Source of the DNA: Piedraia hortae CBS 480.64
Lineage: Eukaryota
Assembly: GCA_010093745.1 (NCBI GenBank)
Contig: MU006024.1
Span: forward strand, 1 to 64,000
Direction of reading: 5' to 3'
DNA: 64,000 nt
The translations under genes were made by a program, and so were the position numbers. Positions 4,987 to 50,539 of the stretch are shown here, piece after piece (the stretch's first letter is position 1; each line of letters begins with the position of its first letter). Below the pieces are notes generated by a model. That model searched no databases. It saw only the letters and a list, made by a program, of their open reading frames with translations, and was not told the origin of the DNA.

Positions 4987-5199
4987 GAACGATCACAAAT
5001 GAAAGACAAAGCGTGAGCGTCAGCAACGAGAGTTATCTGAATTGCAACAACTTTTCACTTGTGATGGAAGAAGGAGAGGAGAGAAAGTCCAGCGGGCCGA
5101 CTTTGCCTGCGTTGAGGCATAGTGCAAGTTTCCACAGGTGATCACCAACCATGGCAACATTCAGCGTGTCCTGCCAGAGATATCTCACTTCGGAATGCG

Positions 5200-27775: not shown

Positions 27776-29378
27776 CTAAACGGTAATTTGACTGTGTCGG
27801 CCCGATTCGATTTTGTACTTTTTCAGTGCGGGACGGACTTGTGTGTCGATGACTTCATCAACGATTTCGGGACACCGTCCGATGAACGTATCTGGATTGG
27901 TAAGTTCGTCCAGTTCGTCAAGAATAGGTTGGAAGAACTCGGTTGCCCTGATCCTGTCGAGAAGATCGTTTGGCTTTCCCTCTTGCTTCACAACCTTTCC
28001 TGCTTCTTGCGAAAGGACGCTGTCGAGATATCAGTAACGACTTACCGCGTCATGTTAGTAGATACCTACCGGATAACTTCGTGCACTTTCTGTCGGGAGT
28101 AACCCTTTTCAACCATGGCCATGATGACGTTCTCCGTCGCCATGAACGGAAGTTCGGCGTTTATCCTCTGGCTGATTACCGCCTTGTTCACTACCAGACC
28201 GGAGGTGATATTGTTCAGCTATGCATGTTAGCACCGTCAGTACAAGGCAGCGTCAACTTACAAGGATGCAACAAGCGTCAGCGGCGAGACACGCGCACGG
28301 GAGGACGAGTCTCCTGATAGCCGAGTCATCCAGACTTCTCTCCAGCCATTGAGCCTGATGAGTCTGCTCTGCGGAACTGGAATATGAGCTCAATGCCCTC
28401 CCAAGCGAACAAAGTCTCTCCGACCTCATCGGGTTCGTCTTGTACGCCATTGCAGATGAGCCAATCTGGTCAGCTTCGAACGGCTCCTCCATCTCTTTGA
28501 ACATGGCCAGATGTCTCATATCCCCACCAATCTTGTACGCCGTACAGCCAAACGAAGAGAGAGCGTGGATGAAATCCACATCAATCTTCCTCGAATAAGT
28601 CTGCGAAGTGGACAGGGTTGAGGCTTTGAAGCCCGCCTTCTCCGTAACCATCCGATCAAGGCTCTTGACCTTTTCATGATCACCCTTAAAGATCTTCAAG
28701 AAAGAAGCCTCGGTGCCGGTCGTACCTTTGGAACCTCTAAACTTGACCAGCAACTTCTCTCTCATCGTCTCCCAATTCTCGAGATCATCCAGCAAATCCT
28801 GTATCCACAGCGTCGCCCTCTTGCCCACGGTAACAAGCTGCGCAGCCTGGCCATGGGTATACCCCAGCGTAGGCAGAGCCTTATACTGCTCCGCGAAGCG
28901 AGCCAGCTGATCAATCGCCAGCGCCAGTTTTGGAAGAAGCATATCAATCGCGTCTCTCAGGAAAATCAGATCGGCGTTGTCGGTAACGAAACACGAGGTC
29001 GCGCCCCAGTGAATGATCCCCGCCGCAGCGGGGCATCGCAGGCCGAAGACGTGCACATGGGCCATGACATCGTGTCTTCGCTTCGCCTCCTCTTGGGCCG
29101 CGAGAGGAAAATCCGAGTCTGCGATCACAACGTTCGCCTCCATCTGCCGCAGTGCTTCGTCCTCGATTGGCAGGCCCAGGCTTCGTTGCGACTGCGCCAG
29201 CCAGAACCATAGCCTGCGCCAGGTGCTAAAGCGATTGCGCGGGGAGAAGATGAATTGCATCTCCCGTGAAGAGTAGCGAGAGTTGAGGGGGCTGAGGTTC
29301 GAGTGTTAATTTTCCTGCGTATTCACTGAGAAGAAGGGAGTCGTACTTTTGGTAGGTGTCATAGTCGGCCGTCGACAT
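27776..29378 (-). CDS. ADE13: Adenylosuccinate lyase; 3 introns
   Basis: [57 protein letters not shown]. Confidence 0.96.
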
Positions 29379-33747: not shown

Positions 33748-34428
33748 CTAAGTCCGATCAGGAGAATGACTAGGAACCTGCTGTTGATGGTTTTCCACGA
33801 AATTCATAGTCCTGTCGGAACCTTCTCCGTGTTGAGCCTGGCTGGGAGGTGAGACAGACGTGAACCAAACGAAAGCTTCCCTTCGAGACAAATCTCCAGG
33901 ATCAATGCTCCTCACACACGTGGTTAACTGATCGTAAGCATTAAACCCTTTCTCCAGATAAACCTTCAAATCCCTCCACGGAATAAAATCATAACCCATA
34001 GGCACATGATTGTCCGGCAAACACCTATACGTTTGTAGATCCAAAGCAAAACCCGATAAGTCCCAATTATGGAACCTTGAGTCATGGCCTGGCATGGGCT
34101 CCGCAGCCTTGAGAAGCGGCCAAATTTTGCTTATGGAGAAGACGTCGGAGCTCCGACGCTGTAAAAAGCCTAACAGGCATGTGATGTCGTAAAGAGACAC
34201 GAAAAGTTGGTCGGTGCACAGACAGAGACAGCTGATCGCGTACATATTGCCGCTACGCCAGCACGTAGTAGACGATTCGCTGCAGGGTGTGACTTCCACG
34301 TAAATTGAGTCGCGGCGTTCATCCCGGGTGACTAACACCAATTTCCTGTGCGTCTTGAGTTCGTATAGGGGCCAGGAATCTGAAACATGATCGAGGGTGT
34401 TGCTGTTGATTTCGAGCTTGGGGGCCAT
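33748..34428 (-). CDS. Divergent MedA/Medusa-like domain protein, copy A1 (226 aa)
   Basis: Paralogue of 35248-36213 and 40467-41408: W..E..HRKLV, YAISCL, VSLYDITCLLGFL, PMGYDFIPW.DL.VYLEK. Confidence 0.75.
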   Translation of the reverse strand: MAPKLEINSNTLDHVSDSWPLYELKTHRKLVLVTRDERRDSIYVEVTPCSESSTTCWRSGNMYAISCLCLCTDQLFVSLYDITCLLGFLQRRSSDVFSISKIWPLLKAAEPMPGHDSRFHNWDLSGFALDLQTYRCLPDNHVPMGYDFIPWRDLKVYLEKGFNAYDQLTTCVRSIDPGDLSRREAFVWFTSVSPPSQAQHGEGSDRTMNFVENHQQQVPSHSPDRT

Positions 34429-35247
34429 TGTGTGTGGACTGGTTTTTGAGGTGTGATTGGAATTTGGGTCCGCGGATACAATGATTTGAGGTCGATGAAG
34501 TTATGGCAGTTGAAAGGTGAGGAAGGAAGTGCTTGAAGGCAAAGATCGATTATAACTGGTTCTGATTATGACTAGCATCACTAATCAGTTTGTGAACTGA
34601 GCTTCAGTTGAAGGGAACGAACTGATAGTGTGAGTACACTGAGACGTGAATAATTGTATAGTTACATTTACTACATACATGAGAGGACGTTGTTCATGGT
34701 CATCACGTGAAACCCTTCAACTCCTTTGAACCGTTATGCTATTCAACGAGTGCTCCAGAACTTGCCCTGTCTATATTGCCAAGTGAGCGGCATATTGCAT
34801 GGAAAGATTATCAAGTAGTGAAGCTGCTCGAAAAGCAAAGATACCATTAATGTTTAACATCGTTGAGTGATGTCCCAAGTTGATCGCGCCGGTGCAGGTC
34901 GGGAGGCGCAAATGTCTCTGTAACCTCATAGCAAACTATCTAGTAGTGGTCGACAATACAATCAACAAGACATAGTCTTTAAACTGTTAATGAGCACTGT
35001 AATTCGTTAAATGCACCATTAACGTACCAACATTCGATCCAATTATAAAGACCGGATCAAATTTGCGAGATGCTACGTGGTTGGATGTCTGAATGGGACA
35101 CATGCCATCGGACTGGGATGACAAATTTCAGTAGTATGAAACCGCGACGCTAAATGGGGAATTGTTCACACAGATGTGCTTTCCTGTCTACTAGAGCTTC
35201 ACCAGCCCCATCCTAGCTTATGTAATCTACAAGTCGGACACGCGCAG

Positions 35248-36213
35248 CTAACCATTCATTGAACCATTTACATCGTCATTGCCGGTGTTAGTGTTCTTGG
35301 TCGCTTGCGGTTCTTGTTCCTTCGCAGCCTTCGGTCCATGACCATCAGCAGTCGTGTGGTTGTCGAAATCGCATGACACAAAGCTGAGCGGGTCGCGAAT
35401 CTTCTGTTGATCTGTACTTGCAGTGTTCACTCTGCTATAACTATCCTCTTCATGCCTGTGAGATGGGCCGGACCACGGTGGAATCGAAATTCCGCCAAGC
35501 GAGGGGCAGGGAAGCTGCTGCTGATTATTGCCTGCGGGATCGTTCGTGCCGCCGGCCCCTTCTCCATGTTGAGCTTGTATATGTGGCAATGAAGTCAAAC
35601 CTCCACTAGAGTGGTCCTGCTGATTGTCCGCCGAATGCTCCATGGATGGAACCCAAGCCCCCCTAAATGATTGATCCCCCGGGTCAACCCTCCTCACACA
35701 CTTCTCCAACTTCCCGAATGCATTAAACCCCTTCTCTAAATAAACTTGCAGATCACCCCACGGGATAAAATCATACCCCATTGGCACATGACTGTTCGGT
35801 AAGCACCTATTCTTTTGTAGCCTCAAAGCCAGATCTGACAAGAACCAATTATTAAACCTTGAATCACGGCCCGGCATAGGCTCAGCAGCCTTGAGAAACT
35901 GCCAGATGCCGCTCATTGAGAAGACGTGGGGATTTCCGTGCTGTAGAAAGCCCAGCAGGCAGGTGACATTGTAGAGTGAGATGAAGAAGTAGTTTTCACC
36001 AAGCCAGAGACAGCTAATCGCGTACATGTTGTCGCTGAGCCAGCTGGAGGAAGTGGAAGTTTCGCTGCAGGGTAAGGTGCGTGTGTAAATTGTGTCGAGG
36101 TGACGTCTACGCTCGAAGACTACTAGGCGCCTTTGTGTCTCTATTTCGTTAGGGAGCCAGGAGGCGGGGACTTGGTCGAGGGTGTTGTTCGTTATTTCGA
36201 ATCTGGGGAGCAT
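35248..36213 (-). CDS. Divergent MedA/Medusa-like domain protein, copy B1 (321 aa)
   Basis: Same motifs as A1, followed by a disordered Q/P/G-rich tail. Confidence 0.8.
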   Translation of the reverse strand: MLPRFEITNNTLDQVPASWLPNEIETQRRLVVFERRRHLDTIYTRTLPCSETSTSSSWLSDNMYAISCLWLGENYFFISLYNVTCLLGFLQHGNPHVFSMSGIWQFLKAAEPMPGRDSRFNNWFLSDLALRLQKNRCLPNSHVPMGYDFIPWGDLQVYLEKGFNAFGKLEKCVRRVDPGDQSFRGAWVPSMEHSADNQQDHSSGGLTSLPHIQAQHGEGAGGTNDPAGNNQQQLPCPSLGGISIPPWSGPSHRHEEDSYSRVNTASTDQQKIRDPLSFVSCDFDNHTTADGHGPKAAKEQEPQATKNTNTGNDDVNGSMNG

Positions 36214-36645
36214 TGTGTGTGGATTAGTTTGGGGTCTAGGTGGAATTGGATGTGGATGTGGTGGTACGATGAAAATGTGGGGGTGTGGGTGTGTGGGTGA
36301 CGTGCCTCGAAGTTGGTGGGGTTATGGCACTTGACAGGTGGGGAAAACAGCAGCAAAAAAGGTGGAGAATTTTTAACGTCCAGTCATGACGAACACCGCA
36401 AACCAATGTGTGAGCTGAGGGTTTGGCCGCCATGCCCAACGAGCGCTCCATAATACGATCACGGTCGAGCGCACCCTGTCTTTCTTACGAAGAGGCGGCG
36501 TAATGCCTAAGCATATAAGGTAGTCAAGCTACCTGAAAAACACAGACATTAAAAGTCTAATCAGTATGCCATGAAACGGGCTGGATAGGCATATTTTGCT
36601 TTCTATCTAGCTGATTGGCCAAGTTCAGGTAGTCAAAACCTTTTG

Positions 36646-37762
36646 TTTGTTTTGTTTTGTTTTGTTTTATGTTTTAACGCCAGGGCGGAAGCATCCACGA
36701 ACGGCGGCCCACAGCCTCCCGAAGGGCATTAGGCGTGCTAGTCCAGGATATTTACAGGGCCACCAAACCCAGCCAGCAAATCTATCCCTGTGGGGTTGTA
36801 TTTTACATGTCTCTCGCAGAGCTCCCCCGCCAGCTGGGGTTACTTACGATATCAAGCCCGAGGGCAGATCTCCTGGTTGAATCGGGTGTTCCGCATAAAG
36901 GCGGCAAAGTCCTTGGGCTGCTGAATCAGCTGCACCAGGTACCTCTCCCTTGAAACAGATGGTATATGCGAGTGCGAACGATGGATGGAGAGAAGAGGTG
37001 TGTGTACAAGTGAATACAAGTGTGTCTACAAGGGTACATCATAAAATATATACTGGGCCGGTAGGCCAGTGCGTAGCCTCGTAGGAAGAGTCATCAGTCG
37101 TATGACCGTAAGCAAGTGGTCATACATGCAGTAAAACCGTCAGCATGCAGTCTTACTCCATGACTTACCTCAAACAGTAGCAGAGCGCATTCACCATGTC
37201 GCATACGACATGACCCTGAGGGGAACCTCTGTGAGGACAAAACCTAGGGTGCAGCTGCTGGTGTAAGAGGTGTAGCGTAGTGGCATCGTGCACTCATAGC
37301 AACGAGATTCCGTGCCAACATCCCTTTCTCTCTCATTTGGCGGCCTTCTGGGGCCTTCCCAAAACCACGGCCATACTCTCCATCGATTGATGACTTGCCA
37401 GCAGTGAACCAGATGGTCGGGTGTCTTCGGCCGCCCGCAACTACAGTTGAGGACAGCGTCGTCATGGCTAAAGCGGCGGTGGTGTGCCGCGAAGTCGCCA
37501 TGCCCCGTGCGAATGGCCAGCAAGCGATGCAGAACTGGCCGCTCCAGGTGCAGCGACTCGCGCTCCTGGATCGCAAAGGGTGTGGGCCACTTCTTGTAGT
37601 CCCTTGCAAGCTTGGATATAATGCCTCTCCAGTACTGTACGATTTGGTCGCGAAGAAGTCTTTTCGCCTCGGGTTTGATTCCAGCTGCTGTAGGGCAGGC
37701 CTCCGGGTCTCGAGTGCCCTTGCAGCCTTCCTTGGCAAGGCGGTCCGCGAGCTCTAGCCACG
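36646..37762 (-). mobile_element. 5'-truncated non-LTR retrotransposon (Tad1-like LINE 3' end), interrupted by a solo LTR
   Basis: LAIRTGHGDFAAHHRRF..CSCG..KTPDHLVHC; (AAAAC)n-like tail at about 36646-36675; TSD accttttg at 36638-36645 and 37763-37770. Confidence 0.9.
36951..37320 (-). mobile_element. Solo LTR (family LTR-B), 370 bp
   Basis: TG...CA ends; TSD tccct at 36946-36950 and 37321-37325; close to identical with 43311-43682. Orientation is inferred from the TGTTGG start on the minus strand. Confidence 0.95.
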
Positions 37763-38040
37763 ACCTTTTGCGGGTATCCTGGAAGAACCATCCTGGTTAC
37801 CATTTCCACCTTCACCCCTGTTTCTAAATTTAGCGGGAAAGGTGCTTGTCACCTTTCGAGGGTGTCTTTGGCGCTTGATCGTTCGAAGCATTTAGTCCAT
37901 ATCTATCAGCAGTTGTTATTGTCCCGATTGCACGACTTGAAGGCCAGCAGACCGGAAATATTCAGTTGAAATTGGCCCGAAGAGTCTTTTCTGAATGGAT
38001 ATTGCTAGAATATTGGGCCGAACAAAGGTGGGGTTGAAGC

Positions 38041-38854
38041 TTGCCCCAAGGGCGATCGGGAAATCTGCTACTGATGGCAGTTCGCGGAACCATTTGTGTC
38101 ATTAATACTTTCTCTGTGTTGAGCTTACCAATGAGATGGACTGGCTCAATGTGGAATCAAAACTCCGTCAAGCGAGGGGCGGGGAAACAGCTGCTGCTCA
38201 TAGCCCTCGGGATCGTTATTATCGTCGGTACCTTGTCCATGTTGAGGCATAGAGGGGCCCGGCCTCTGCTGCTGCTGATTATCTGACATCGGCGGAACAT
38301 GTTTCCCCATCAGGAAATAATCCCCAGGATCAACCCTCCTCACACACGTCTCCAACTGCCCATAGGCGTTGAACCTCTTCGCCAAGTACATTTTCAAATT
38401 CACCCACGTAGTGAAATCAAACCCCATAGGCACATGATCGTACGGCAAATACCTGTGTCTGTAGGCCCAAAGCTAACCCCGATAAGTCCCATTTACTGAC
38501 CCTTGAATCAAGGCCCGGAAAGGGCTTCGCAGCCCTAAGAAATGGCTAAATGCCGCTTATGAAAAAGACGTGAGGATTGTCGTGCTGCAAAAAGCCTAAC
38601 AGGCGTGTGATATCGTAAAGAGATATAGAAACGTGGTCTTCGTCGTGCAGCCTAAGGCAACTAGTCGTTTACATATTGCCACTACGCCAGGATGGTGTAG
38701 ATGATGCGCTGCAGGGTACGATATGCGCGCAGATTCTGTCCTGAACTTTGGTCCGATTGACTGCCAGCAATCTTCTGTGTGTCTCGAGTTCTCTTTGGTG
38801 CCAGCAGCATTGAATATTCAAGATGTCGCTGGTTATTGAGAACTTGGGGGCCAT
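38041..38854 (-). pseudogene. MedA-like paralogue A2, pseudogenised
   Basis: MAPKFSI...HRRLL...WRSGNM* (TAA where the paralogues have TAC); a second stop (GI*PFL); a 2-nt deletion before LPYDHVPMGFDF. Confidence 0.85.
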
Positions 38855-39299
38855 TTTGTGTGGATTGGTTCTTGAGGTGCGAAATTATGGGAGGCGAAGA
38901 TTGGTTACGTATAGATATCTCTGGTCAGGAGTAACATCACTAATCAATTTGTGAGCTGAGCTTTGAGCCGTTATGTTCTTCAACAGGTGCCCCAGAAGAT
39001 GCCATGTCTCTATTGCCAGATGAACGACGTATTCTTAAGGGATTGCGACGTTAATGGAACTGTCTTGGAAATATAAATAAATAATGACATTAATGTTTAA
39101 CTTTGTCGAGTGACGTCCCAGGTGGATCGTGCCGTTACAGGACGGGAGGTGCAAACATTCCCCCAAGCTCACAGCATACCATCCCGTAGTAGTATACAAA
39201 CCATCAACAACACCTTGATGTGAATCTATCAGGTTATGAGCGCGCCAATGTCCACCGAAGATCTCAGCATCGAGTCCATCGACAAGTCGATTCCACACA

Positions 39300-39950
39300 C
39301 AGAAGACTTGCATGAATGAAGGAAACATGTGAAGAACTCTCTTTAATTGCTAGCTTCAACGTCCTTCTCCACAATCAGGCCAGTGCACCCGCAGATCTAG
39401 CCGGCGAGACAGACTGTGGCTATGCCGCATGTCTGGAAGTGTGCGAAGGCAAGAAAGCGCGTGTCCTAGCGGCCATCCGCGAGCGCTGTGGGCATAATGC
39501 GGAACCAATTTTAAGTGAGCGTACCACTGTGGCGGAAGAATTCGAGAAGTTACACACAAGATTCATATCCACGGGCTCTGGAACGCTCTTCAAACTTGTT
39601 GCACGCTTCCATGATTTAACTCTCAGCTCTTCCACCGGGTAGAAAATTTAAACCGGAGATCAAAAAGACCTGCAATCAGTTGTGTGATATTCATGACGCA
39701 GTCAAAGTGTTACATTGTGTCCAAATCCCTTCATGGCTTGGGGGAAGAATATCAGCAATTTCGGACGTCATGCAACCTGCAGCTTGCGGTCATAACCGCC
39801 AGAATCGGAGCTGACGGACGAGCGCAGCTACTGAAGAGTTTGAAGCACCGATGGTCAAGGCGGATGGTCCCAAAGCTATTCGCTTGAAGAAACCAAATGG
39901 TCACAGCATACCACCACTTTGGAATACTCGCCAGCATTGTTGACCAAACC
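39300..39950 (+). mobile_element. Degenerate copia-type gag remnant
   Basis: AIRERC...AEEFEKLHTRF..GSGTLFKLVARFHDLTL, then LHGLGEEYQQFRTS. Not seen in the paralogous A1-B1 spacer. Confidence 0.55.
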
Positions 39951-40466
39951 ATCGCGGAGCCTGTAGGACGCGAAGACTACCGCTACGCCGATGGATAAGG
40001 CTAATCTTGCTAAGACGCATGAGCACCGCCCAAGTTGAAAGGAAAGGGCTAACATGTGATGGGCTTCCTGAGATTCGACAGCACTGTCCCTGTGAGGCAG
40101 CAATGCTTCTCTGGGACAGTAGATTTGTCAGAGTTGGCGCCCTTGTGAGAGTCTATGGTTTATAGGCCTGAGGTACCCCCAGATAGAGGTGATCACTTAG
40201 TGCTTTTCGGTCCCTGGATCATCTCTGTTTGCCATTTTTCCTTCAGATGCACTGTTGTGTTCACGGTCTAAAATTTGCCCTTCTTCCCAGTGCCATAGAG
40301 ATTGTGCTAGCTATAACGCCACCAGAAGAACGACCTCCGGTGATGCTTTGAATATGGGCAGGAAGTGAGATTTAAATTCGTAACATGAAACCGCGATTTT
40401 GAATGGGGAAGTGTTCACGCATCTGTGCTTTCCTATCTACCCGTATTTCACCCTTCCGTCTAATCG

Positions 40467-41408
40467 TCACGAGTTGGGCGTGCGCAGCTGTTCACTCCTT
40501 GAATCCGTTATATCGTCATCGCCATTTTTAGGTTTCGTAGGTGTCTGCAGCCGTTGACCCCCCACATTCTCTGCTCCATGTCCACCAGCCGTCATATCGT
40601 CGTCAAAATTGCACGAAAATAAACTCCTTACGCCAGGAATCCTCTGCTGACCATTTACCCCATACCCATCTTCATCGTGCCCGTAAGATGGGCCAGGCCA
40701 AGGCGGAATCAAAACCCCACCCAGCGAGGGGCGGGGAAGCTGTCGCTGCTGATTGCCCACAGAATCATTCGCACCACCATCACCTTGCTGGCCCTGCGGC
40801 ACCAACCCCCCGTTAAACTGACCCTGCAGAGTCGCCCCAGTCGGCACCCAACTCCCCCTAAACGACAAATCCTGCGGATCAACTCTCCTCACACACCCCC
40901 TCAACAGCTCAAACACATTGAACCCCTTCTCCAGAAAAACCTGCAAATCCCCCCACGACATAAAATCATACCCCATCGGCACATAATCATTCGGCAAACA
41001 CTTATTCATCTGCATCATCAAAGCCATTTCCGATAAGTACCAGTTACTGAATCTCGGATCATAGCCCGGCATAGGCTCCGCAGATTTGAGATACGACCAA
41101 ATACCGCTTATGGAGAAGACGTGGGGGTTCCCATGCTGGAGGAAACCTAGGAGACAAGTGAGGTCGTAGAGGGAGATGAAGAAGTGGTTTTCACCAAGCC
41201 CGATGCAGCTGATGGTGTACATGTTGCCGCTGCGAAAGGTGGTGGTATTGGAAGATTCGCTACAGGGAACAATGCGTGCATATATGGTGTCGTGGAGGCG
41301 GCCGCGCGCGAAGGCGACGAGTCGTCTGTGAGTTTCGATTTCGCTGGGGAGCCAGGAGGTGGGGATGTTGTGGAGGATGTTGTTTGTTATCTCGAGGTGG
41401 AGGGACAT
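40467..41408 (-). CDS. Divergent MedA/Medusa-like domain protein, copy B2 (313 aa)
   Basis: LEITNNILHNIPTSWLPSEIETHRRLVAFAR..TIYARIVP..ISCI..FFISLYDLTCLLGFL..W.DLQVFLEK. Confidence 0.8.
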   Translation of the reverse strand: MSLHLEITNNILHNIPTSWLPSEIETHRRLVAFARGRLHDTIYARIVPCSESSNTTTFRSGNMYTISCIGLGENHFFISLYDLTCLLGFLQHGNPHVFSISGIWSYLKSAEPMPGYDPRFSNWYLSEMALMMQMNKCLPNDYVPMGYDFMSWGDLQVFLEKGFNVFELLRGCVRRVDPQDLSFRGSWVPTGATLQGQFNGGLVPQGQQGDGGANDSVGNQQRQLPRPSLGGVLIPPWPGPSYGHDEDGYGVNGQQRIPGVRSLFSCNFDDDMTAGGHGAENVGGQRLQTPTKPKNGDDDITDSRSEQLRTPNS

Positions 41409-42677
41409 TTTGTGGATTCGGTTTGGGATTTTTTGGGGTATGTGGGTTGCTTAATTTGACGTCGGTGGGAGGAATGTCAGTTGACAGGTGGGGAAGACAG
41501 CAGCAGAATTTCAGACTTTTAGCATGACGAACATTGCAGATCGATGGGTGGGCTGAGCGTGTGTCGTCGTGTTCAGCGAGCGCTTCTGAAAATGATTACG
41601 ATTGAGTACGTTCTGTCTCTTGCGAAGAAAATGCATCGTGATTGGAGAGATTACGAGCTGGTGGAGCTGCCCGGAAAGGAGATCTTGAAAGCCTAGCATG
41701 CCTTGAAACGCACTGGATAGGCTTATCATGCTGTCTATCCAGCTGGTTGGCAAAGTTCGGGGTAGGTAAAAGCTTATGCGGGTATTCTGCAACCCTTACG
41801 CCTTTAAATCTCCTACCCAACTAAGCGGGGAAAGCATTTCATTATGATGAGTTTCCCGCATGAGCATATTTGCAGGCTAGCAGCCGGGACAAACTTTGCC
41901 TAACATCAGTCAGGCTTCCTTTTCTGCGTCCCCTCCGGATGGGCGTTGCGCCAGCTCGATTGCTTCTTCCGCAATGTAGATCTACGGCCTCTTTTCCTGC
42001 CGGTGTCAGTCAGACTGGGTCCGGTGCAGCTGTGAAGGGCGATTCCCTGTCTCGGGAGCACGTTCGACTTGATTATGCGTAGTGAATGCCAGTCACACTG
42101 CTCCACGTTGAACTTGCCTTGCATCTGAGTGTAGAGGTTGGCGAGAATAAGTAATGGCGACGCAGCTTTAGCCTTGCATATGCGCGCTTGATCACTGTGC
42201 ACGCCCTGGCTGAATAAACATCCTCGCCCCATGACTGAACAGGAATGATTCCAGGTCAAGACTGATGCGACCTCTCTAGGTCTTTGCGACCGCACGACAG
42301 GTATACAGCTACTATCGGCGAGCCTGCGAGGTATGGGTGGCTGTGCATGCATGCATACATGCGCCAAGCCTCGCTTTGACACTTTGAAGAGATCAACACG
42401 GGCCGATCATCGCCCCGCAAATACATGATTTGCTTCAACAACGAGCATCCAAACTCACGTACATTTTACTATCTTTCAAATATATGCCTAGGAAAAGATC
42501 TAGGGTTTCGAGTGATAGCTTCAGGTGATAGAGGCATTCATACCGGTATATCGACTTCTTCAGTGACGGGACAGCATCATTCAGATCTCAACGCTCAGCA
42601 AAATGTATCGGGTGAGAGTTTGATGGTGTTCTCGGTGTGGACATCACTGGACGATGCAAACAGTTATGGTCGTTACC

Positions 42678-44560
42678 TTAGCGGGAAAGCGTCTTCATCA
42701 CTATCTCCATCCAGATACGACTTGAACTGTCGTACTCAGGGTCTCTCGGAAACCTGTTTCGCTCGAAATCTTCGCCGATTAACATCGACATTGGATCGTC
42801 ACCGAGCAAAAAAAGTGAAGCTTCTGACTTATGAGCGTCCAAGATCCGTTTGACATCCTCCACGACCTGGCGTAAGCCTTGTATGTTAAGGTGTAGGTCG
42901 AAACGTGTGCAGTCAGCTTTATGCATCCCCACAGCGCATCCCTACAAGGGATGTAGAAATATATAACCTCTTGGGCAAGATCTTCTGCACATCCAGTCTA
43001 TTTAGATGCGGAAAGAGCGACGCCGACGTTTGCGGCAGGGCCAAAAAATCGAAAGACGCATTGAAATCAAATTCTGTCACGTCCGGACATGAGCTGCTCA
43101 ACGCCATGGGCGTGGCTATGCCGACAGTGGGGACATGATCGCACAGTATGACGAAGCTCTGCAACTTGGGCAGGCAGGGAAAGAGAACGATAAAGCATTC
43201 GTCGCTCAAGTCACTGGCATCAATTTTCGCACGCACCTCATGGAAACACCAAGCTTTAGGTATTCCAAGGATCTCAACTGTTGGAGACTAACAAAGTCCC
43301 GTGAGCTGATTGAAACAGATGGTACGTGCGAGTGAGAACGATGGATGGAGAGTAGAAGTGTGTATACAAGTGAATACAAGTGTATCTACAAGGGTACATC
43401 ATAAAATATATACTGGGCCGGTAGGCCAGTGCGTAGCCTCGTAGGAAGAGTCATCAGTCGTATGACCGTAAGCAAGTGGTCATACATGCAGTAAAACCGT
43501 CAGCATGCAGTCTTACTCCATGACTCATCTCAAACAGTAGCAGGGCGGGCATTCACCATGTCGCATACGACATGACCCTGAGGGAAACCTCTGTGAGGAC
43601 AAAACCTAGGGTGCAGCCGCTGGTGTAAGAGGTGTTGCGTAGTGGCATCGTACACTCATAGCAACGAGACTTCATGCCAATACTGATTTTGTGGCTGTCT
43701 TCACAGTCAAAGTTGATGACCAAGTTGAAAAATAATGAAATCTCGCTAGTGACACTCAGGATATTCATGTGGCCTGGATCAAAAGCAGTGAGCTCAAGCG
43801 ACTGCAGATCACCGAGAATGCCGGGTAAGAATGGAATCGAAGCCGCGTCAATCCCTATCCTAAGCCTCTGAAGGTGGGGAAAGGCAGGCTCCTTGTTTGA
43901 CGCTAGCTTCTAAACATTTTTGTGGTCAAGTTAGAAGGCACTGATGTCCCGTAGGCGATCATGTTTAAGCGTAAGGCCCTCTCCACGGCTGTGTTTGGGT
44001 TCCGCAAATTTCAAAGTCTCGAGGCTATGATTCTGACCAAGCATGTTCAGTAGCCCACCAACTGTCAAGGACTTTGGCAAGAACCTGAGGGAAAGTCGTT
44101 TCAGTCGAGGGCACCGGGTTGGGATGAGGGTGGCCAGCTCATTATTACCTTGCGCATTGTCGTTGTGCATTTTAAGTACTATCAGTTTTGGCTGGAGGTA
44201 TTGGGCAAAGGAGAAACTTTCTCGGCAGGGTAGATAAACCTCGCTGGAGTCCAATTCGACTTCAGACCGCATCGGAAAGAACAGATCATTGATCCCTCGC
44301 TGGCATGTGTCTTCGTAAAGGTCATTATAAGCAAAAAGGTAACAAATCTTGTTGGCGTAATACTGCCTCCGGTCAAAAGACGCAATCTTGCTGAGATGTT
44401 TTGTCGTACTGACAGACTCCTAGAGAAAATCGGTGCTAGGGTCTGCCAGCTCGTGGCAGAGCAGACCAAGATTGAGCAGAGATTTTCGATCGCATGCTGC
44501 TTCACGTGCGATTGCCAGTACAATCTCCGGTAGAACATGGATCTTGTTGATGATGAGCAT
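42678..44560 (-). pseudogene. F-box/LRR (RNI-like) protein pseudogene interrupted by a solo LTR
   Basis: VLPEIVLAI...LLC...FL*...RRQYYANKI, TRCPRLKRLSL, AFPHLQRL, LFPHLNRLDV; several stops and frameshifts. Confidence 0.75.
43311..43682 (-). mobile_element. Solo LTR (family LTR-B), 372 bp
   Basis: TG...TA (CA mutated); TSD ctgat at 43306-43310 and 43683-43687. Confidence 0.93.
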
Positions 44561-44980: not shown

Positions 44981-45080
44981 CGATACCTCCTACACTACCA
45001 GCTGCACCCTAGGTTTTTGCCTCACAGAGGTTTTCCCTCAGGGTCATGTCATATGTGACATGGTGAATACGCCCCGCTAG
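44981..45080 (+). mobile_element. Partial, more diverged LTR-B copy in opposite orientation
   Basis: The reverse complement matches ttcaccatgtcgcatacgacatgaccctgaggg...aacctagggtgcagc of LTR-B. Confidence 0.8.
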
Positions 45081-45284
45081 TGTACGACGTGACGTCACCG
45101 GCCCACCGGAACAGAATTTTCATTCTGAACGTCCCCTTATTGAAAAATAGTCATTCACACTACCATGCTGCAACTGGTATTTTGACTTACATACATCTAC
45201 ATCTTTCCTGTCCCTGATTCCGTCTATCGCTCCGCCCTCTTCGGGTCGCTGTGCACTCTCACCCACGAGAGCTAAATACCTACA
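45081..45284 (+). mobile_element. LTR-A copy (about 204 bp)
   Basis: tgtacg...ctaca termini; the 3' 134 bp match window positions 1-135; no TSD seen. Confidence 0.7.
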
Positions 45285-45687: not shown

Positions 45688-48591
45688 CTACTCATTCACA
45701 ACCACACACCGCGCCTTGGAGGCAGCATCCGCGCAATCCGCAACAGCTCCCAGCAACGTAACCTTCATCAACGCTTTAACAACCAACGATTCCCTCTTCG
45801 ACGAGACTAGGTCCCTTAGCGTCCGTTCCCAGAACCGCGTCAGCGACTCTAGCGGACAGTCCTCTGGCATGATCTCCAGGATATAATCCACCTCATCGGG
45901 GCCGAAAAAAGTATTGATAACATGGCATGAGATATTATGCCGGAGAGAGCGATCGGGAAGGGCAAGCAGGAGGGATAGCAGATTTCGGAAGAGTTTTTTA
46001 CTCTCTTCGGCTGAGGATTTGGCCTCTTGCAGTGGACGGGAAGATACCCGAGGAGGAAAAGGGGCACGTAGAGCGGAATGGGTTGAGGAAGGGGAAAAAA
46101 TGTCGGGTTTTCCGCTTGAGAGACAGAATCGGATGGCGGTGTCGTAGTCGCCTAGATGTGTGACCAGCAGACGGAGAGCTTCTGTGGCTTTGCCCTGAAT
46201 GGCCAGGATGATGATCCATTCCGGGACGAGAACGGACGAGTATTCTGCTATAGACTCGAATGCGTCCATGGAAGAGGATCTGCTAAGTAGCATGAGGAGG
46301 TTTGTGCGCATCGTCCACCATTCGTTATCGTCGGTTTGCTGTGATGAGATATATTGTAGATATGTTCCCCGTGGTAGGGGCAGGGAGTTGTATACCTCGT
46401 ATGACTCTTCCACAGCCGTCCTGATGTTGTCGTCGTCATGTAACGTTGCAAGAAGCTCTTTGAGGTACAGCGCGACGAGGTCATCAATGTACTTGCTTTC
46501 GTTCCGCTCCAAGACAAGCAGCTCTAGGAACATCTTCTTTGCAATGGGCGTTTCGTCGCCGAGCAATGTCAAGGCATCATCGTGCGAGAACTGCACGCGA
46601 GCCGTCTCGTCTGCGAAAAAGTTCACACTCAATGCAGGATTTCGTTTGGCAAGCCAGACTCCATACTCTTTGACAAGAGCTGCATCACGAATCTTGGCAA
46701 GGTAGCGACGAAGGAAAACTTCGCCAGTATTATCCAGCTCTCCGCCAGAATCGGGGGTACCTTCAATGATGCGCTTCCAGGTTGAAAGAACACGTGCCGG
46801 CATTTTGCAGCTTTGGTACAGCCTGCTGAGGAGGTAAAGCCTTGAGTAGGCTTCAAAAAGCTCTTTTGCACGATCAAAGGCGTCAATGCCTTTATCTATA
46901 AGCTCGTTGAGCTCGGAACGGATGGATCCTGGTTTTGCTGGGCCACGAGGGCTGTCTTGATCCAAGATTAGGAGTACGTGTACCAGCGCTGCATCTACAG
47001 ATTGAGAGACCGAGGCTTCATCCGCAACACTTCCAAAACCCTTCTTGCCACGCCATGCTTGGAGGTAGCGCTTGCAAGGTAGCAGAATGTTTGCGTTGTA
47101 TGTCTCTTTGGGGTATTCAACGATGCTGCGTAGCGAGAAAATTGTTTTGCACAACCCTTCTGGGATCCATATACCCTGTGGACCTTGCACAACCTCCTCC
47201 TCAAGCGGCGTGACGAGAGACAGAACGGTGCGAGGGTCAATAGCACCCGCCATGAGAAGTTCCTCTGCTGCCTTCTTCTGGGCTTCCTGCGCAACTACAT
47301 CTTTACTTGTCTCCAGGAGCAAAACGCCAAACAACAGTAATGAAGCCTTTTGCCGAACATAGGTTAAAGTCAGGAAATCAAGCTCGTTTTGAGCATCCAT
47401 TCGCTGGATGCTGTCGATTGTTTTTTGGATACGCTTGGTGTCTATCTCCAATCCCTTGTCTCGTTGCACAGCGGCATCCAGTTCAGGCTCAAGACTTGAT
47501 ATCGTGGCATAGCGTACTACCCAGGATATTTTGTCTCCATGGTATAGCAGAATTGATGCCTGTGTTCGAGAGAAGCGGGAGACAAACTCGTCTTCCTCCT
47601 TGTTCCGTGCATCTTCAGCGTTGTTGGGCTCATTGGTCAGGTTTAGTCTTCTCCGGCGTAAGCTGCTTGTTACGCCAGGAACAGCGAGACTAGTTGGACT
47701 CGATGCCACGCACAGGCCGACGCCAGTTTCTGCTCCTGCAGCCAGCCACTCCTTTTTGGGTGCTGAAAGGTCCAGATCCCATCGCTGGACTTCAATCTCC
47801 TTGCCTGAGCCGCGATCAACTAGGGCAAGCACAAACCCTCCCTCATCCAGAACCAGTGCCTCTGGGTAGGAGCTGAATTCTATGGATCCTCTGACAACAT
47901 CTCCATCTGTATTTACAAACATGCCCACACCGGGCTCGTTTAATTGCGTGCCAGTGGTCAGTAGGAACTCGGTTGGTGTCGGGCTGACTATGTTTGGAGG
48001 AAGAGAAGAAGAATCGAGAGAAGAAATGGGAAAGAGCTCGCTTTTCCTCTGGTTTGCCAAGTCAATGAGAGAGTAGAGACGGCCATCGGCCAGACAAGCT
48101 AGGTCGCCGCGTCTTTGGATGATTGAGATGCCTCCAAGGTCAATATCGCGGATCTTGCGAGCTTCATAACCAATACGTATTAAGCGCAACCTCTGCCTTA
48201 GACAGATTACTATAGCCGTTCCGGCAGGATCAGAGTCGTCGGTGCTGCACACAAAGAGACAGCTGTTTTGCTGGATCTTGCTGCCAAAGGCGGGACTTAG
48301 TTCTGGGAGGGTGTAGAAGCAGAGGGTGTCATTGCAGAGGATACAGGCCTTGGCCACACGCGGTAGCAGGACTATCTGCCTCACACCGGCCTCTTTGCCT
48401 TCTTGTTTGGTAGCATAAGGCGGTTTGAGCCGAGAGGCGAACATGTAGCCGCCATCGACGGCAACGTAGTGTAGCACTGCCCCGGCTACCGTGCCGACGT
48501 AGACGTTCCCGTTCCAGGCATCTACGCAGGTGATCTCGTCGCCGTCCAGCGGAACGTCGCCAAGTAGCGGTTGGAGGTCAAACGCGGCCAT
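45688..48591 (-). CDS. CNH-domain Vps3/Vam6/TGFBRAP1-like tethering subunit
   Basis: ITCVDAWNGNVYVGT, LCFYTLPELSP, SPTPTEFLLTTG..EPGVGMFVNTDGDVVRG, ALRLLVTHLGDYDTAIRFC. Confidence 0.85.
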   Translation of the reverse strand: MAAFDLQPLLGDVPLDGDEITCVDAWNGNVYVGTVAGAVLHYVAVDGGYMFASRLKPPYATKQEGKEAGVRQIVLLPRVAKACILCNDTLCFYTLPELSPAFGSKIQQNSCLFVCSTDDSDPAGTAIVICLRQRLRLIRIGYEARKIRDIDLGGISIIQRRGDLACLADGRLYSLIDLANQRKSELFPISSLDSSSLPPNIVSPTPTEFLLTTGTQLNEPGVGMFVNTDGDVVRGSIEFSSYPEALVLDEGGFVLALVDRGSGKEIEVQRWDLDLSAPKKEWLAAGAETGVGLCVASSPTSLAVPGVTSSLRRRRLNLTNEPNNAEDARNKEEDEFVSRFSRTQASILLYHGDKISWVVRYATISSLEPELDAAVQRDKGLEIDTKRIQKTIDSIQRMDAQNELDFLTLTYVRQKASLLLFGVLLLETSKDVVAQEAQKKAAEELLMAGAIDPRTVLSLVTPLEEEVVQGPQGIWIPEGLCKTIFSLRSIVEYPKETYNANILLPCKRYLQAWRGKKGFGSVADEASVSQSVDAALVHVLLILDQDSPRGPAKPGSIRSELNELIDKGIDAFDRAKELFEAYSRLYLLSRLYQSCKMPARVLSTWKRIIEGTPDSGGELDNTGEVFLRRYLAKIRDAALVKEYGVWLAKRNPALSVNFFADETARVQFSHDDALTLLGDETPIAKKMFLELLVLERNESKYIDDLVALYLKELLATLHDDDNIRTAVEESYEVYNSLPLPRGTYLQYISSQQTDDNEWWTMRTNLLMLLSRSSSMDAFESIAEYSSVLVPEWIIILAIQGKATEALRLLVTHLGDYDTAIRFCLSSGKPDIFSPSSTHSALRAPFPPRVSSRPLQEAKSSAEESKKLFRNLLSLLLALPDRSLRHNISCHVINTFFGPDEVDYILEIMPEDCPLESLTRFWERTLRDLVSSKRESLVVKALMKVTLLGAVADCADAASKARCVVVNE

Positions 48592-48619
48592 TGCGGCAGC
48601 GGATCTCCGCACTTTGACA

Positions 48620-50539
48620 ATGCAGGCCACGCCCGGCGCCGAGAGCAACTTTCACGCCGCCGTCGCCGCCTGGCGCTCGCTGCAGTTGGGCAAGTTGGTG
48701 CCGTCGCTTGATGCCGTTGCGGCCGATTTAGTGAACCGCTCCAAGGATGCGCTCCTCCAGCGCAAGGAACTCGCGCAAAAGACCAAAGATTTCCGACGAC
48801 TAGATGACGAAGCCAAGCTGGCGGGAGTCAAGGAGCTGCTCAAGGCGTACCAGACGTACATTGACGGCCTCACGGGCCAAAACAAGACCGTTCAGGCCGC
48901 TTTTATGCAGGTCTACGAGCCGCTCTCCGACGCCCCAGACCCCTACCCGCTACTGGACGCATCAGCCGACGCAATAGAAAGGGCAGACCGCGCAGAGGCA
49001 GACAGAGAGCGGCTGCAGCAACGTGTTGCCAAGCTGGATGCACACCTCGAGCAGCGCGAGACGGAACTGGAGAGCGAGCGCAGCAACCGACAGGCGTTGG
49101 AGGCGTCGCAGACAGCCAAAGCAAAGGAGATTGAAGACTCATGGTCGGCAGTGCTCAAGGAAAAGGAAGACAACTGGGCGGCCAAGGAGAAGAGCTTCAC
49201 GGAAAGGGCAGAGAACCAGGAGCGGCTGCTGAAGGAGATCAAGGCCAACTACGAAGTCAGCCAGCGACTGGAGAGAGATGCAAACGATGAAGGCCGCGAC
49301 CGTCACGCCGACCGCGCCGTCCAGGCCGAGCTGGATATCCTCGCCTCGGACCTGGAAAAGGCAAACGTGCGGCTGGTCGAACTGGAGACGCGCAACGAAC
49401 AGCTCCGTTTGGAACTGGCCCAGTCTGCCGGCCACGCTGCCCCGGCCGTGGAAGACGATCCTGCCTTCCTCCGGCTGCGGTCCGAGAACCAGTCACTACG
49501 GCGGAAGCTGGAGTCTGCCGCGGAGAAGAAGAAGGCGGAGAGCAGTAGCATGGAGAACCGGATTCGCACTCTAGAGCGCGAGATCCGCACGTTGGAGGCA
49601 GATCGCACAGCGCTGGAGAACAAGTTAAGCAAATGGAGCAACTACGACGAGATCCGACGCGAGCTGGAGATGTTACGCGACATAGAGAACATAGACGAGG
49701 CAGAAGACACCGACAACCTTGAGCGCTTGCTACTTACGCGCAACAAAAAGCTCAACAACGACTATACGGAATTAAGAGTGTCACACAACGAGCTGCAGCA
49801 GCGGCTGGGCAGTCTGCAGGAGGAGCTCTCGGGCCGCAACATGGAGCTAGAGCAGGCCAGGGAAACCATGGCCAAGCTGGAGTTGGAGGTGGAAAGGTCG
49901 CAGCAGGCGGCCACCGACGCTTTTGAGACCATGTCTGTAGCCCAGTCGAAGTTCCCAAAGTCAGTCTACGGCAGCAGACGGGCGCCGTCGCCAACGTCGT
50001 CCATCATAGGCATCCCGCCGGCCGAGCCTGCACAGAACCCGTCTAGCATCCTGCCCATGGTGACCGCCCAGCGCGACCGCTTCAAGAAGAGGACAGGCGA
50101 GCTGGAACTGGAACTGCAGCGGCAGTATCAGACTGTGTCATCGCTGCGGTCCGAAGTTGCGTCATTGCAGCGAGACAACCTTGACCTGTACGAAAAGACA
50201 CGCTACATGTCCTCCTACCGTGGAGCTACTGCACAAAGCACAGGCTCAGCGGTGAATATGGACAGATACAAGTCAGCCTACGAGCAAAACATCTCCCCCT
50301 TCGCTGCCTTCCGCGGCCGGGAGAGCGCGCGAGCGTTGAAAAGACTCAGTTTCGCCGAAAGAGCCATCTATCAGGCGACGAAAATGGTCCTGGCCACTCG
50401 TACCAGCCGCAACCTTTTTGCTGCATACTGCATAGGCCTGCATTTGATGGTGCTCGCCCTGCTGTATCGCATCGGCTCCGTTGACGTTGAGCGGCACTCA
50501 CCCGATTGGCGGCCCGAGGTGTTACCGAAGCGCCCGTAG
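48620..50539 (+). CDS. COY1: Golgi coiled-coil membrane protein CASP/Coy1
   Basis: RKELAQKTKDFR, LLKAYQTYID, LSDAPDPYPLL, SILPMVTAQRDRFK, DNLDLYEKTRY, ISPFAAFR, and a TM segment with YCIGLH. Confidence 0.93.
   Translation: MQATPGAESNFHAAVAAWRSLQLGKLVPSLDAVAADLVNRSKDALLQRKELAQKTKDFRRLDDEAKLAGVKELLKAYQTYIDGLTGQNKTVQAAFMQVYEPLSDAPDPYPLLDASADAIERADRAEADRERLQQRVAKLDAHLEQRETELESERSNRQALEASQTAKAKEIEDSWSAVLKEKEDNWAAKEKSFTERAENQERLLKEIKANYEVSQRLERDANDEGRDRHADRAVQAELDILASDLEKANVRLVELETRNEQLRLELAQSAGHAAPAVEDDPAFLRLRSENQSLRRKLESAAEKKKAESSSMENRIRTLEREIRTLEADRTALENKLSKWSNYDEIRRELEMLRDIENIDEAEDTDNLERLLLTRNKKLNNDYTELRVSHNELQQRLGSLQEELSGRNMELEQARETMAKLELEVERSQQAATDAFETMSVAQSKFPKSVYGSRRAPSPTSSIIGIPPAEPAQNPSSILPMVTAQRDRFKKRTGELELELQRQYQTVSSLRSEVASLQRDNLDLYEKTRYMSSYRGATAQSTGSAVNMDRYKSAYEQNISPFAAFRGRESARALKRLSFAERAIYQATKMVLATRTSRNLFAAYCIGLHLMVLALLYRIGSVDVERHSPDWRPEVLPKRP

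Follow-up and report, generated by a model that had tools for sequence, protein, structure and literature searches.

A tandem array of probable, strongly diverged and charge-stripped MedA-domain (DUF7082) genes in Piedraia hortae

What becomes of the conserved domain of MedA, a regulator that is conserved among filamentous fungi and acts on their sporulation, adhesion and virulence, when it is found by itself, in several copies and far from its usual sequence? The question is raised by a tandem array of four genes in a fungal stretch of 64,000 nucleotides (Piedraia hortae CBS 480.64, contig MU006024.1, positions 1-64,000; hereafter the window). The four paralogues, named A1, B1, A2 and B2, all lie co-oriented on the minus strand; three of them are intact open reading frames (ORFs) running from ATG to stop, and A2 is a pseudogene. 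An earlier interpretation made from the letters of the DNA (the sequence-only reading) had described these four copies where we find them, and had proposed that they encode stand-alone, diverged versions of the MedA domain, which it identified with Pfam DUF7082. Our results suggest, with a probability of roughly 0.8, that the array consists of real, selected protein-coding genes and that these form a lineage-restricted subfamily of the MedA domain.

Do the array proteins belong to this domain family? In Aspergillus fumigatus MedA, the conserved domain occupies residues 346-557 of 683 and contains the KNRIRR cluster, according to the consulted part of the study of that protein (PMC3503810). MedA reference sequences were collected by searching metagenome contigs with a back-translated VEEKNRIRR pattern, which gave at least 114 stretches. 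A hidden Markov model (HMM) recognised a MedA-type domain in 99 of the 114 fetched loci, and the remainder encode unrelated proteins that share the motif. From these, 61 distinct domain segments of 178 aa were taken, and 59 were aligned after two (L117 and L161), whose N-terminal part is unreadable in frame, had been dropped. All seven of the reference domains that were compared with Pfam are full-length DUF7082 (208-255 bits). Since the MedA-type domains fetched with VEEKNRIRR are full-length DUF7082 in all seven cases compared, DUF7082 is the MedA conserved domain. The three intact array proteins all match the corresponding model, PF23305, with scores of 31.7 (A1), 33.9 (B1) and 30.9 bits (B2), above its curated gathering cut-off of 27 bits for the whole-protein score; the 93-aa C-terminal fragment of the A2 pseudogene has no DUF7082 match.

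Comparison of profile with profile leads to the same assignment. When the three window domains are aligned with the 59 MedA domains in hhalign, the match has a probability of 95.1% (E 3.4e-8, 104 columns, 29% identity) and pairs residues 4-113 of the window proteins with positions 14-118 of the MedA segment. Among the 922 ORFs of the window, the HMM of the 59 MedA domains ranks B1, B2, A1 and the N-terminal piece of A2 (38672-38884) first, at E 2e-7 to 2e-5 (B1 26.4 bits, E 2.2e-7; B2 25.1 bits; A1 22.5 bits, E 3.6e-6; the A2 piece E 2e-5), and the next-ranked ORF follows at E 0.016. The reverse search, in which an HMM of the window family was used, finds MedA ORFs at E 1e-8 to 1e-5. In the MAFFT alignment the whole domain is collinear with MedA, with three small indels, and the signature L..W...E....RRLV.F.R / ISC / LL..L / P / F..W..L...L.K keeps its order and spacing over ~170 residues. 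The MedA consensus that the sequence-only reading had given agrees with the consensus of the 59-domain alignment, and its assignment of the window proteins to DUF7082 is upheld by the Pfam scores of all three proteins, by hhalign and by the HMMs in both directions.

Two observations weigh against extending this assignment to the full domain. The DUF7082 match found by HMMER covers only profile positions 6-107 of 155, that is, the first two thirds, and the last third taken alone gives a local match of 15 columns on the F.W..L...L.K helix (P 0.034). At the level of profiles, the comparison with Pfam and with the MedA domains, which had been proposed as a check, is significant over the first ~110 residues and demonstrates homology to MedA for these first two thirds; homology of the last third is probable from its collinearity. 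Could an orphan family of odd composition have given a false-positive match? Such a chance resemblance would fit the fact that the DUF7082 scores are only 4-7 bits over the cut-off, with two thirds of the model covered, and that searches with single sequences come up empty. However, four tests agree with each other (the Pfam gathering cut-off in 3/3 proteins, hhalign at 95%, the MedA HMM with the copies at the top of 922 ORFs, and the reverse HMM), and the order and spacing of the core signature positions are preserved, which makes chance an extremely improbable explanation.

The three intact genes are built in the same way. A1 (33748-34428, minus strand) encodes 226 aa, with the domain in residues 1 to ~175 (window ~33904-34428) and a tail of 41 aa; B1 (35248-36213, minus) encodes 321 aa, with the domain in residues 1 to ~175 (~35689-36213) and a low-complexity tail of 136 aa; B2 (40467-41408, minus) encodes 313 aa, with the domain in residues 1 to ~175 (~40884-41408) and a G/Q/P-rich tail of 128 aa. 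The first ~185 residues are 60-68% identical among the intact copies and align free of gaps. The tails (41-136 aa) contain 27-38% Q+P+G and 59-65% Q/P/G/S/N/D/T; they are of low complexity yet alignable, sharing a block of the type LP.PSLGG..IPPW.GPS, and that of A1 is shortened relative to the other copies. Because the ATG stands at the same aligned position in all four copies, behind CCACA(C/A)A, and the stop-to-stop frames reach just 14-36 codons upstream of it, the domain starts at residue 1. The sequence-only reading, which had placed the domain at the very start of short proteins, was correct in this respect, given the conserved ATG and the ORFs of 226-321 aa. Its description of the genes as intronless is right as regards the domain, where a single open frame runs collinear with MedA, and is not demonstrable for the tails. 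B1 is present in a public protein collection (P0002) with a precomputed PF23305 match. For B2 the public gene model (P0001, 251 aa) takes Met63 as its start and thereby loses 62 residues from the front of the domain; all four copies conserve these residues, and they align with MedA.

The fourth copy, A2 (38035-38854, minus strand), has its ATG at 38854 and carries three lesions: an in-frame TAA at 38671-38669, where A1 has a Tyr codon; an in-frame TAG at 38548-38546, where A1 has a Trp codon; and a 2-nt deletion near 38457, beyond which reading continues in another frame. Its pieces match the family HMM at 31-110 bits, its tail matches the B1 tail as far as 38035, and an ORF fragment of 93 aa is found at 38146-38427. 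The window holds exactly four copies, as judged by tblastn with the three proteins and by the family HMM against 1935 six-frame ORFs, and neither search gave a fifth. A frame at 39615-39884 on the plus strand was considered as a reversed fifth relic on account of its E of 0.016 against the MedA HMM, and was rejected as a chance match, the family HMM and tblastn both being blind to it.

The flanks of the genes record how the array grew. The upstream flank of A1 (34561-34971, minus) is alignable with that of A2 (38920-39213), with blastn identities of 84% over 44 bp and 71% over 256 bp. B1 and B2 are joined by a single blastn alignment of 1517 bp (35136-36645 with 40385-41778, 67% identity) that includes both flanks, the upstream flank of B1 (36214-36645, minus) being alignable with that of B2 (41409-41778). 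The A1-A2 flank match together with the B1-B2 match therefore implies that a first duplication gave A and B and that the A-B unit was itself duplicated afterwards; the sequence comparison points to an array that is a duplicated two-gene unit, and it bears out the A/B names used in the sequence-only reading.

Are these duplicates maintained, or are they dying relics of a segmental duplication that no longer have a function? The latter possibility finds some encouragement in the three lesions of A2, one of the four copies, and in the shortened tail of A1. Among the intact copies, however, the ratio of nonsynonymous to synonymous substitution rates (dN/dS, omega) obtained with the Nei-Gojobori method (NG86) amounts to 0.20-0.25 over the domain and to 0.24-0.30 over the tail (0.23-0.25 for A1 against B1 and B2). 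The proportion of synonymous differences (pS) is 0.53-0.60 and that of nonsynonymous differences (pN) 0.17-0.25, so that pN amounts to a third to two-fifths of pS, and dS is about 0.9-1.2. The domain is 74-78% identical at the DNA level and gap-free, whereas the flanks are 58-64% identical with gaps (B1/B2 flank, -480 to -83 from the ATG). Three frames of 226-321 codons have stayed open despite a DNA identity of 67-73%, and the GC content at third codon positions of the copies (0.56-0.62) lies inside the range of the neighbouring housekeeping ORFs (0.54-0.74). The sequence-only reading had named an omega near 1 as a sign of decay, and the values found are far below it. These patterns indicate that the three intact copies are under purifying selection and are old duplicates that are not decaying; decay is largely refuted by the dN/dS values and by the gap-free domain beside gapped flanks, and we consider it very improbable.

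The same reading had called the family fast-evolving, which the comparison with MedA itself does not bear out: the paralogue omega is 0.20-0.25, and canonical MedA domains at dS 0.6-1.5 have a median of 0.22, obtained with the same crude method on 46 of 1653 pairs that fall in this dS range, from 58 of the 59 rows (one with a differing first-codon reading was left out). On these sequence data, the great divergence belongs to the stem branch. Repeat-induced point mutation was considered as a source of divergence and rejected, the dinucleotide indices of the island being equal to those of its flanks.

Two points count against reading the array as active, selected genes. First, dS is near saturation, which makes omega rough; second, among the listed sequencing runs none that is on record as RNA contains the stretch, a fact that also speaks for decay. 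Run X2, which is only guessed to be RNA, has exact contigs on B1 (35817-36182) and B2 (40652-40891 and 41024-41423), and also at 41890-42064, which is a weak hint that B1 and B2 are expressed. It has no contigs on A1 or A2, and this is not evidence that they are silent.

How far, and in which direction, has the domain diverged? The window domains are 15-23% identical to the 59 MedA-type domains, which in their own alignment show 44-83% identity to its first row. A quick maximum-likelihood tree puts ~7-10 changes per column on the stem that leads to the three copies, and owing to this long branch it cannot place the origin of the family. Among the metagenome loci, L104, L135, L149 and L153 (also L157, L159, L164 and L179) carry a distinct canonical DUF7082 subgroup of the type GRRLVRF...RRLIVSCEP...EFPVEEKNRIRRNLEGL. 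This subgroup branches off the main MedA-type cluster with full support, and to judge from its sequences it may be a second conserved paralogue or come from another fungal phylum.

The changes in the array proteins fall heavily on positively charged positions. At MedA columns conserved to at least 90%, the window proteins keep 22 of 69 residues and have changed 47, and at the conserved basic columns 5 of 15 are still basic and 10 are lost. Lys and Arg make up 6-10% of the window domains, compared with 16.5% in MedA (range 13.6-19.1%), and the net charge is -1 to -4, compared with a MedA mean of +6. The first basic cluster, RR before LVxF, survives. The columns of KNRIRR read M/I-S-G/K-I-W-Q/S/P, and this type of cluster is gone from the window proteins together with most of the PKPRN..KVF..KK cluster. 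The replacement of the basic segments had been noticed in the sequence-only reading, and in the MAFFT alignment, too, the EEKNRIRRNLEG-type and PKPRNIEKDVKVFPW-type segments stand opposite non-basic ones. What these clusters do is known from A. fumigatus, where the consulted part of the MedA study describes three of them (NLS2, NLS3 with KNRIRR, and NLS4; NLS, nuclear localisation signal) and reports that deleting any one abolishes nuclear localisation, that nuclear localisation is needed for MedA function, and that the conserved domain of ~210 aa alone suffices for both nuclear import and function (PMC3503810).

Is the fold kept under such divergence? When AlphaFold2 (AF2) is given a joint alignment of 62 rows, the model of the B1 domain reaches a predicted local distance difference test score (pLDDT) of 76 and a predicted template modelling score (pTM) of 0.75; its front half is a beta-sheet, behind which come helices, then a short hairpin and, at the C-terminus, a long helix. 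On the other side stand an AF2 run with the three paralogues alone, which is unusable (pLDDT 40), and the ESM Atlas's own model (pLDDT 0.31). Because the AF2 model leans on MedA sequences, it offers no independent demonstration of a fold shared with MedA. The earlier statement that the family keeps the fold is thus favoured by a confident model obtained with MedA rows, and is tempered by the fact that this model is MedA-driven and that the last third is non-significant alone. Foldseek of the B1 model against the Protein Data Bank (PDB) gives no match at E <= 0.001. The best structural match of the model is the Dachshund homology domain (DHD) of SnoN (score 5.6; 96 of 98), and the others are Dachshund (5.4; 92 of 99), Bqt4 (4.5-4.6), the Mbp1 DNA-binding domain (4.4), the BAF47 winged helix (4.0-4.1) and PCG2 (3.9).

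Does the surrounding DNA account for the array? The ORFs that flank it carry PIGA/GT4, DEAD helicase, amidase, Dus, Arf, Gtr1/RagA, Lyase_1, CASP/CUX1 and DIP2/Mug62 domains, and the array lies in an interval of ~16 kb between a lyase-like ORF (28253-29305) and an ORF of 987 aa (45688-48651), in which the four copies are the only recognisable genes. A high-copy repeat is located between B1 and A2 (36950-37318); a second copy, 95% identical, is found at 43310-43680, and self-blastn detects related pieces at 34605-34710 and 44985-45083. The repeats of this family, up to ~370 bp long, have a contig word depth of 400-2800 in DNA run X1, compared with ~13 for the rest of the stretch, and no recognisable coding capacity. 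None of the 69 other ORFs of at least 70 aa between 29.4 and 48.6 kb has a Pfam domain at E <= 0.01. The sequence-only reading had spoken of a TE-rich island (TE, transposable element); this is overstated because no element-encoded protein is present at 29.4-48.6 kb, where only short high-copy repeats are found.

The repeats nevertheless invite the suggestion that the array is the cargo of a mobile element, or was captured by one, so that it travels with the repeats and owes its copy number to transposition and not to host selection. On the one hand, high-copy repeats of depth 400-2800 against 13 stand between and beside the copies, and the ~16-kb interval between housekeeping genes holds no other recognisable gene. 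On the other hand, there is no transposase, reverse transcriptase or element ORF at 29.4-48.6 kb (0/69 ORFs with a Pfam match), the boundaries of the A/B duplication unit differ from the positions of the repeats, the gene copies are at the single-copy depth of ~13 in X1, and the repeat copies, at 95% identity, contrast with gene duplicates that are old (dS about 1). That the array is such cargo, or was captured in this way, is highly unlikely in our judgement.

Three further features of the window are recorded here. The 987-aa frame that adjoins the island (45688-48651, minus strand) has no Pfam domain at E <= 0.01. Overlapping direct repeats with ~70-79% identity (31220-31554/31485-31818 and 30848-30903/31311-31366) lie in the gene-less part of the island. 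Far from the array, an ORF at 3964-4992 (minus) matches Retrotrans_gag with 34.5 bits and, weakly, a Ty3 capsid, and is probably a retrotransposon relic.

Is the family found elsewhere? An exhaustive phmmer search with B1 against 1.84 billion representative proteins returned only the window's own three at E <= 0.001. In word-indexed searches 2 of 394 candidates were confirmed, both of them the window's own, and 0 of 176 longer candidates; a metagenome scan with family motifs confirmed 0 of 347 pattern matches. Searching the PDB by sequence gave no match at E <= 10, and the ESM Atlas gave no usable feature match. At the level of ordinary sequence searches, then, the family appears unseen outside this organism, and the restriction to one lineage that had been suggested for it agrees with the outcome of these searches. 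MedA homologues as such are conserved in Pezizomycotina and absent from monomorphic yeasts, as stated in the consulted part of PMC6231087, which says nothing of mini forms. Among the papers searched, none contains "DUF7082" or "PF23305", and among the results listed none deals with diverged mini-MedA proteins or assigns MedA a DHD/APSES-like fold.

Is a protein that consists of little more than the domain a novelty in itself? Of 3072 candidates in a search with the MedA-domain profile, 668 reached E <= 0.001, with lengths of 97-312 aa. The 120 matches listed are all canonical, with 61-77% identity to a MedA-type domain and 289-324 bits. Several are encoded on contigs of 0.25-3.9 Mb; many lie on contigs of ~1 kb and may be fragments, and the gene models were taken as annotated. 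In the five examined, the basic motifs are full in 5/5 and the domain starts within the first five residues in 2/5. The size of 600-700 aa that the sequence-only reading had given as normal for MedA is right for the studied orthologues (683 aa in A. fumigatus) and does not extend to these 668 short proteins with a canonical DUF7082. Such proteins are already in public annotation, and the stand-alone architecture as such is not new; what appears to be new, on the sequence evidence, is the diverged, charge-stripped, tandem form of a known domain family.

What could have produced this form? We propose that a copy of the ~170-aa MedA domain would have become an independent gene, whose product starts with the domain at residue 1 and ends in a low-complexity tail, and that this gene would have diverged to about 20% identity with canonical MedA. 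A first duplication would then have given an A/B pair, and a second would have doubled that pair, A2 having presumably died since. Because the hydrophobic core is retained along with the first cluster's RR before LVxF, the fold would probably be kept as well. The KNRIRR-type and PKPRN...KVF-type clusters are lost and the domain is net acidic; therefore the proteins probably do not enter the nucleus, and they probably do not make the contact to nucleic acid or to a partner that a basic face may provide in MedA.

What function do the array proteins perform? They may have become a new lineage-specific protein-binding module that is unrelated to the targets of MedA, to which we give about an even chance. 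Modulation of the MedA pathway by competition for a MedA partner is possible, though fairly unlikely. The sequence-only reading, too, had put forward a decoy, and also a conflict function, as possible roles. In a more definite version, the array proteins would act as a MedA decoy in the manner of a microProtein: an interaction surface without basic clusters would titrate MedA or its partner and thereby tune conidiation and development. The consulted part of the A. fumigatus study, where the domain alone is sufficient for MedA function, gives this idea a basis (PMC3503810), and so do the kept core, the loss of 10 of 15 conserved basic columns and the selection on the genes. However, self-association of MedA and its binding partners are not established; cytoplasmic, NLS-deleted MedA had no dominant-negative effect beside wild-type MedA in A. 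fumigatus, a result given as data not shown in the consulted part of the same source (PMC3503810); and at ~20% identity, with 47 of 69 conserved MedA columns changed, a common partner surface is doubtful. We hold the decoy to be unlikely. Still more speculative is the picture in which acidic micro-regulators that lack nuclear-import signals, arisen by duplication of the domain alone, would bind to MedA itself or to its partner and so adjust, in this lineage, the change from hyphal growth to spore formation, with A and B forming a heteromer; we regard it as distinctly unlikely. A supposed equivalence of yeast Mfg1 with MedA, which would have linked MedA to the Flo8/SomA complex, proved to be wrong, the homologue of Mfg1 being PtaB according to the consulted part of PMC4631450.

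The interest of the array lies mainly in what it could tell about MedA. According to the consulted part of the A. fumigatus study, neither a DNA-binding motif nor any other conserved one has been recognised in MedA (PMC3503810), and the array provides a natural variant of its domain that is selected yet charge-stripped, that is, a ready-made separation-of-function allele. A comparison of the array proteins with MedA for localisation, partners and DNA binding could reveal which properties the basic clusters are responsible for. The general lesson is a modest one: fungal genomes often contain lineage-restricted paralogues of regulators that have diverged strongly.

The characteristics of the array become clearer when it is set beside known systems. 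In predicted structure, the closest are winged-helix-like alpha/beta domains, namely the DHD of Dachshund and Ski-SnoN and the APSES-type domains of Mbp1, PCG2 and Bqt4, which give the best structural matches of the AF2 model. In the possible mode of action, the array recalls Id-type or microProtein regulators, where a transcription factor's interaction domain, deprived of the basic region that binds DNA, has a dominant-negative effect; the likeness is a regulator's domain that is kept, basic residues that are lost and a small stand-alone protein, and it would be one of mechanism by analogy only. In architecture, the closest are the short DUF7082 proteins (202 aa in Basidiobolus; 231-291 aa in Mortierellaceae; 263 aa in Fusarium oxysporum f. 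sp. vasinfectum), which likewise consist of little more than the domain; these are canonical with full basic motifs, and none is a close relative of the array proteins. MedA itself (A. nidulans and A. fumigatus MedA, M. grisea Acr1, F. oxysporum Ren1 and N. crassa ACON-3) shares with the array the domain family, the order and spacing of the core and the first RR. Besides its sequence divergence, the array differs from MedA as follows: in MedA orthologues the domain lies at 346-557 of 683 aa, whereas in the array it stands at residue 1 of 226-321 aa; the MedA domain is basic, with the KNRIRR-type and PKPRN..KVF-type clusters, whereas the array domains are acidic and both clusters are gone; and a second domain within 2.5 kb is found at 0 of 99 MedA loci, whereas the array is a tandem of four.

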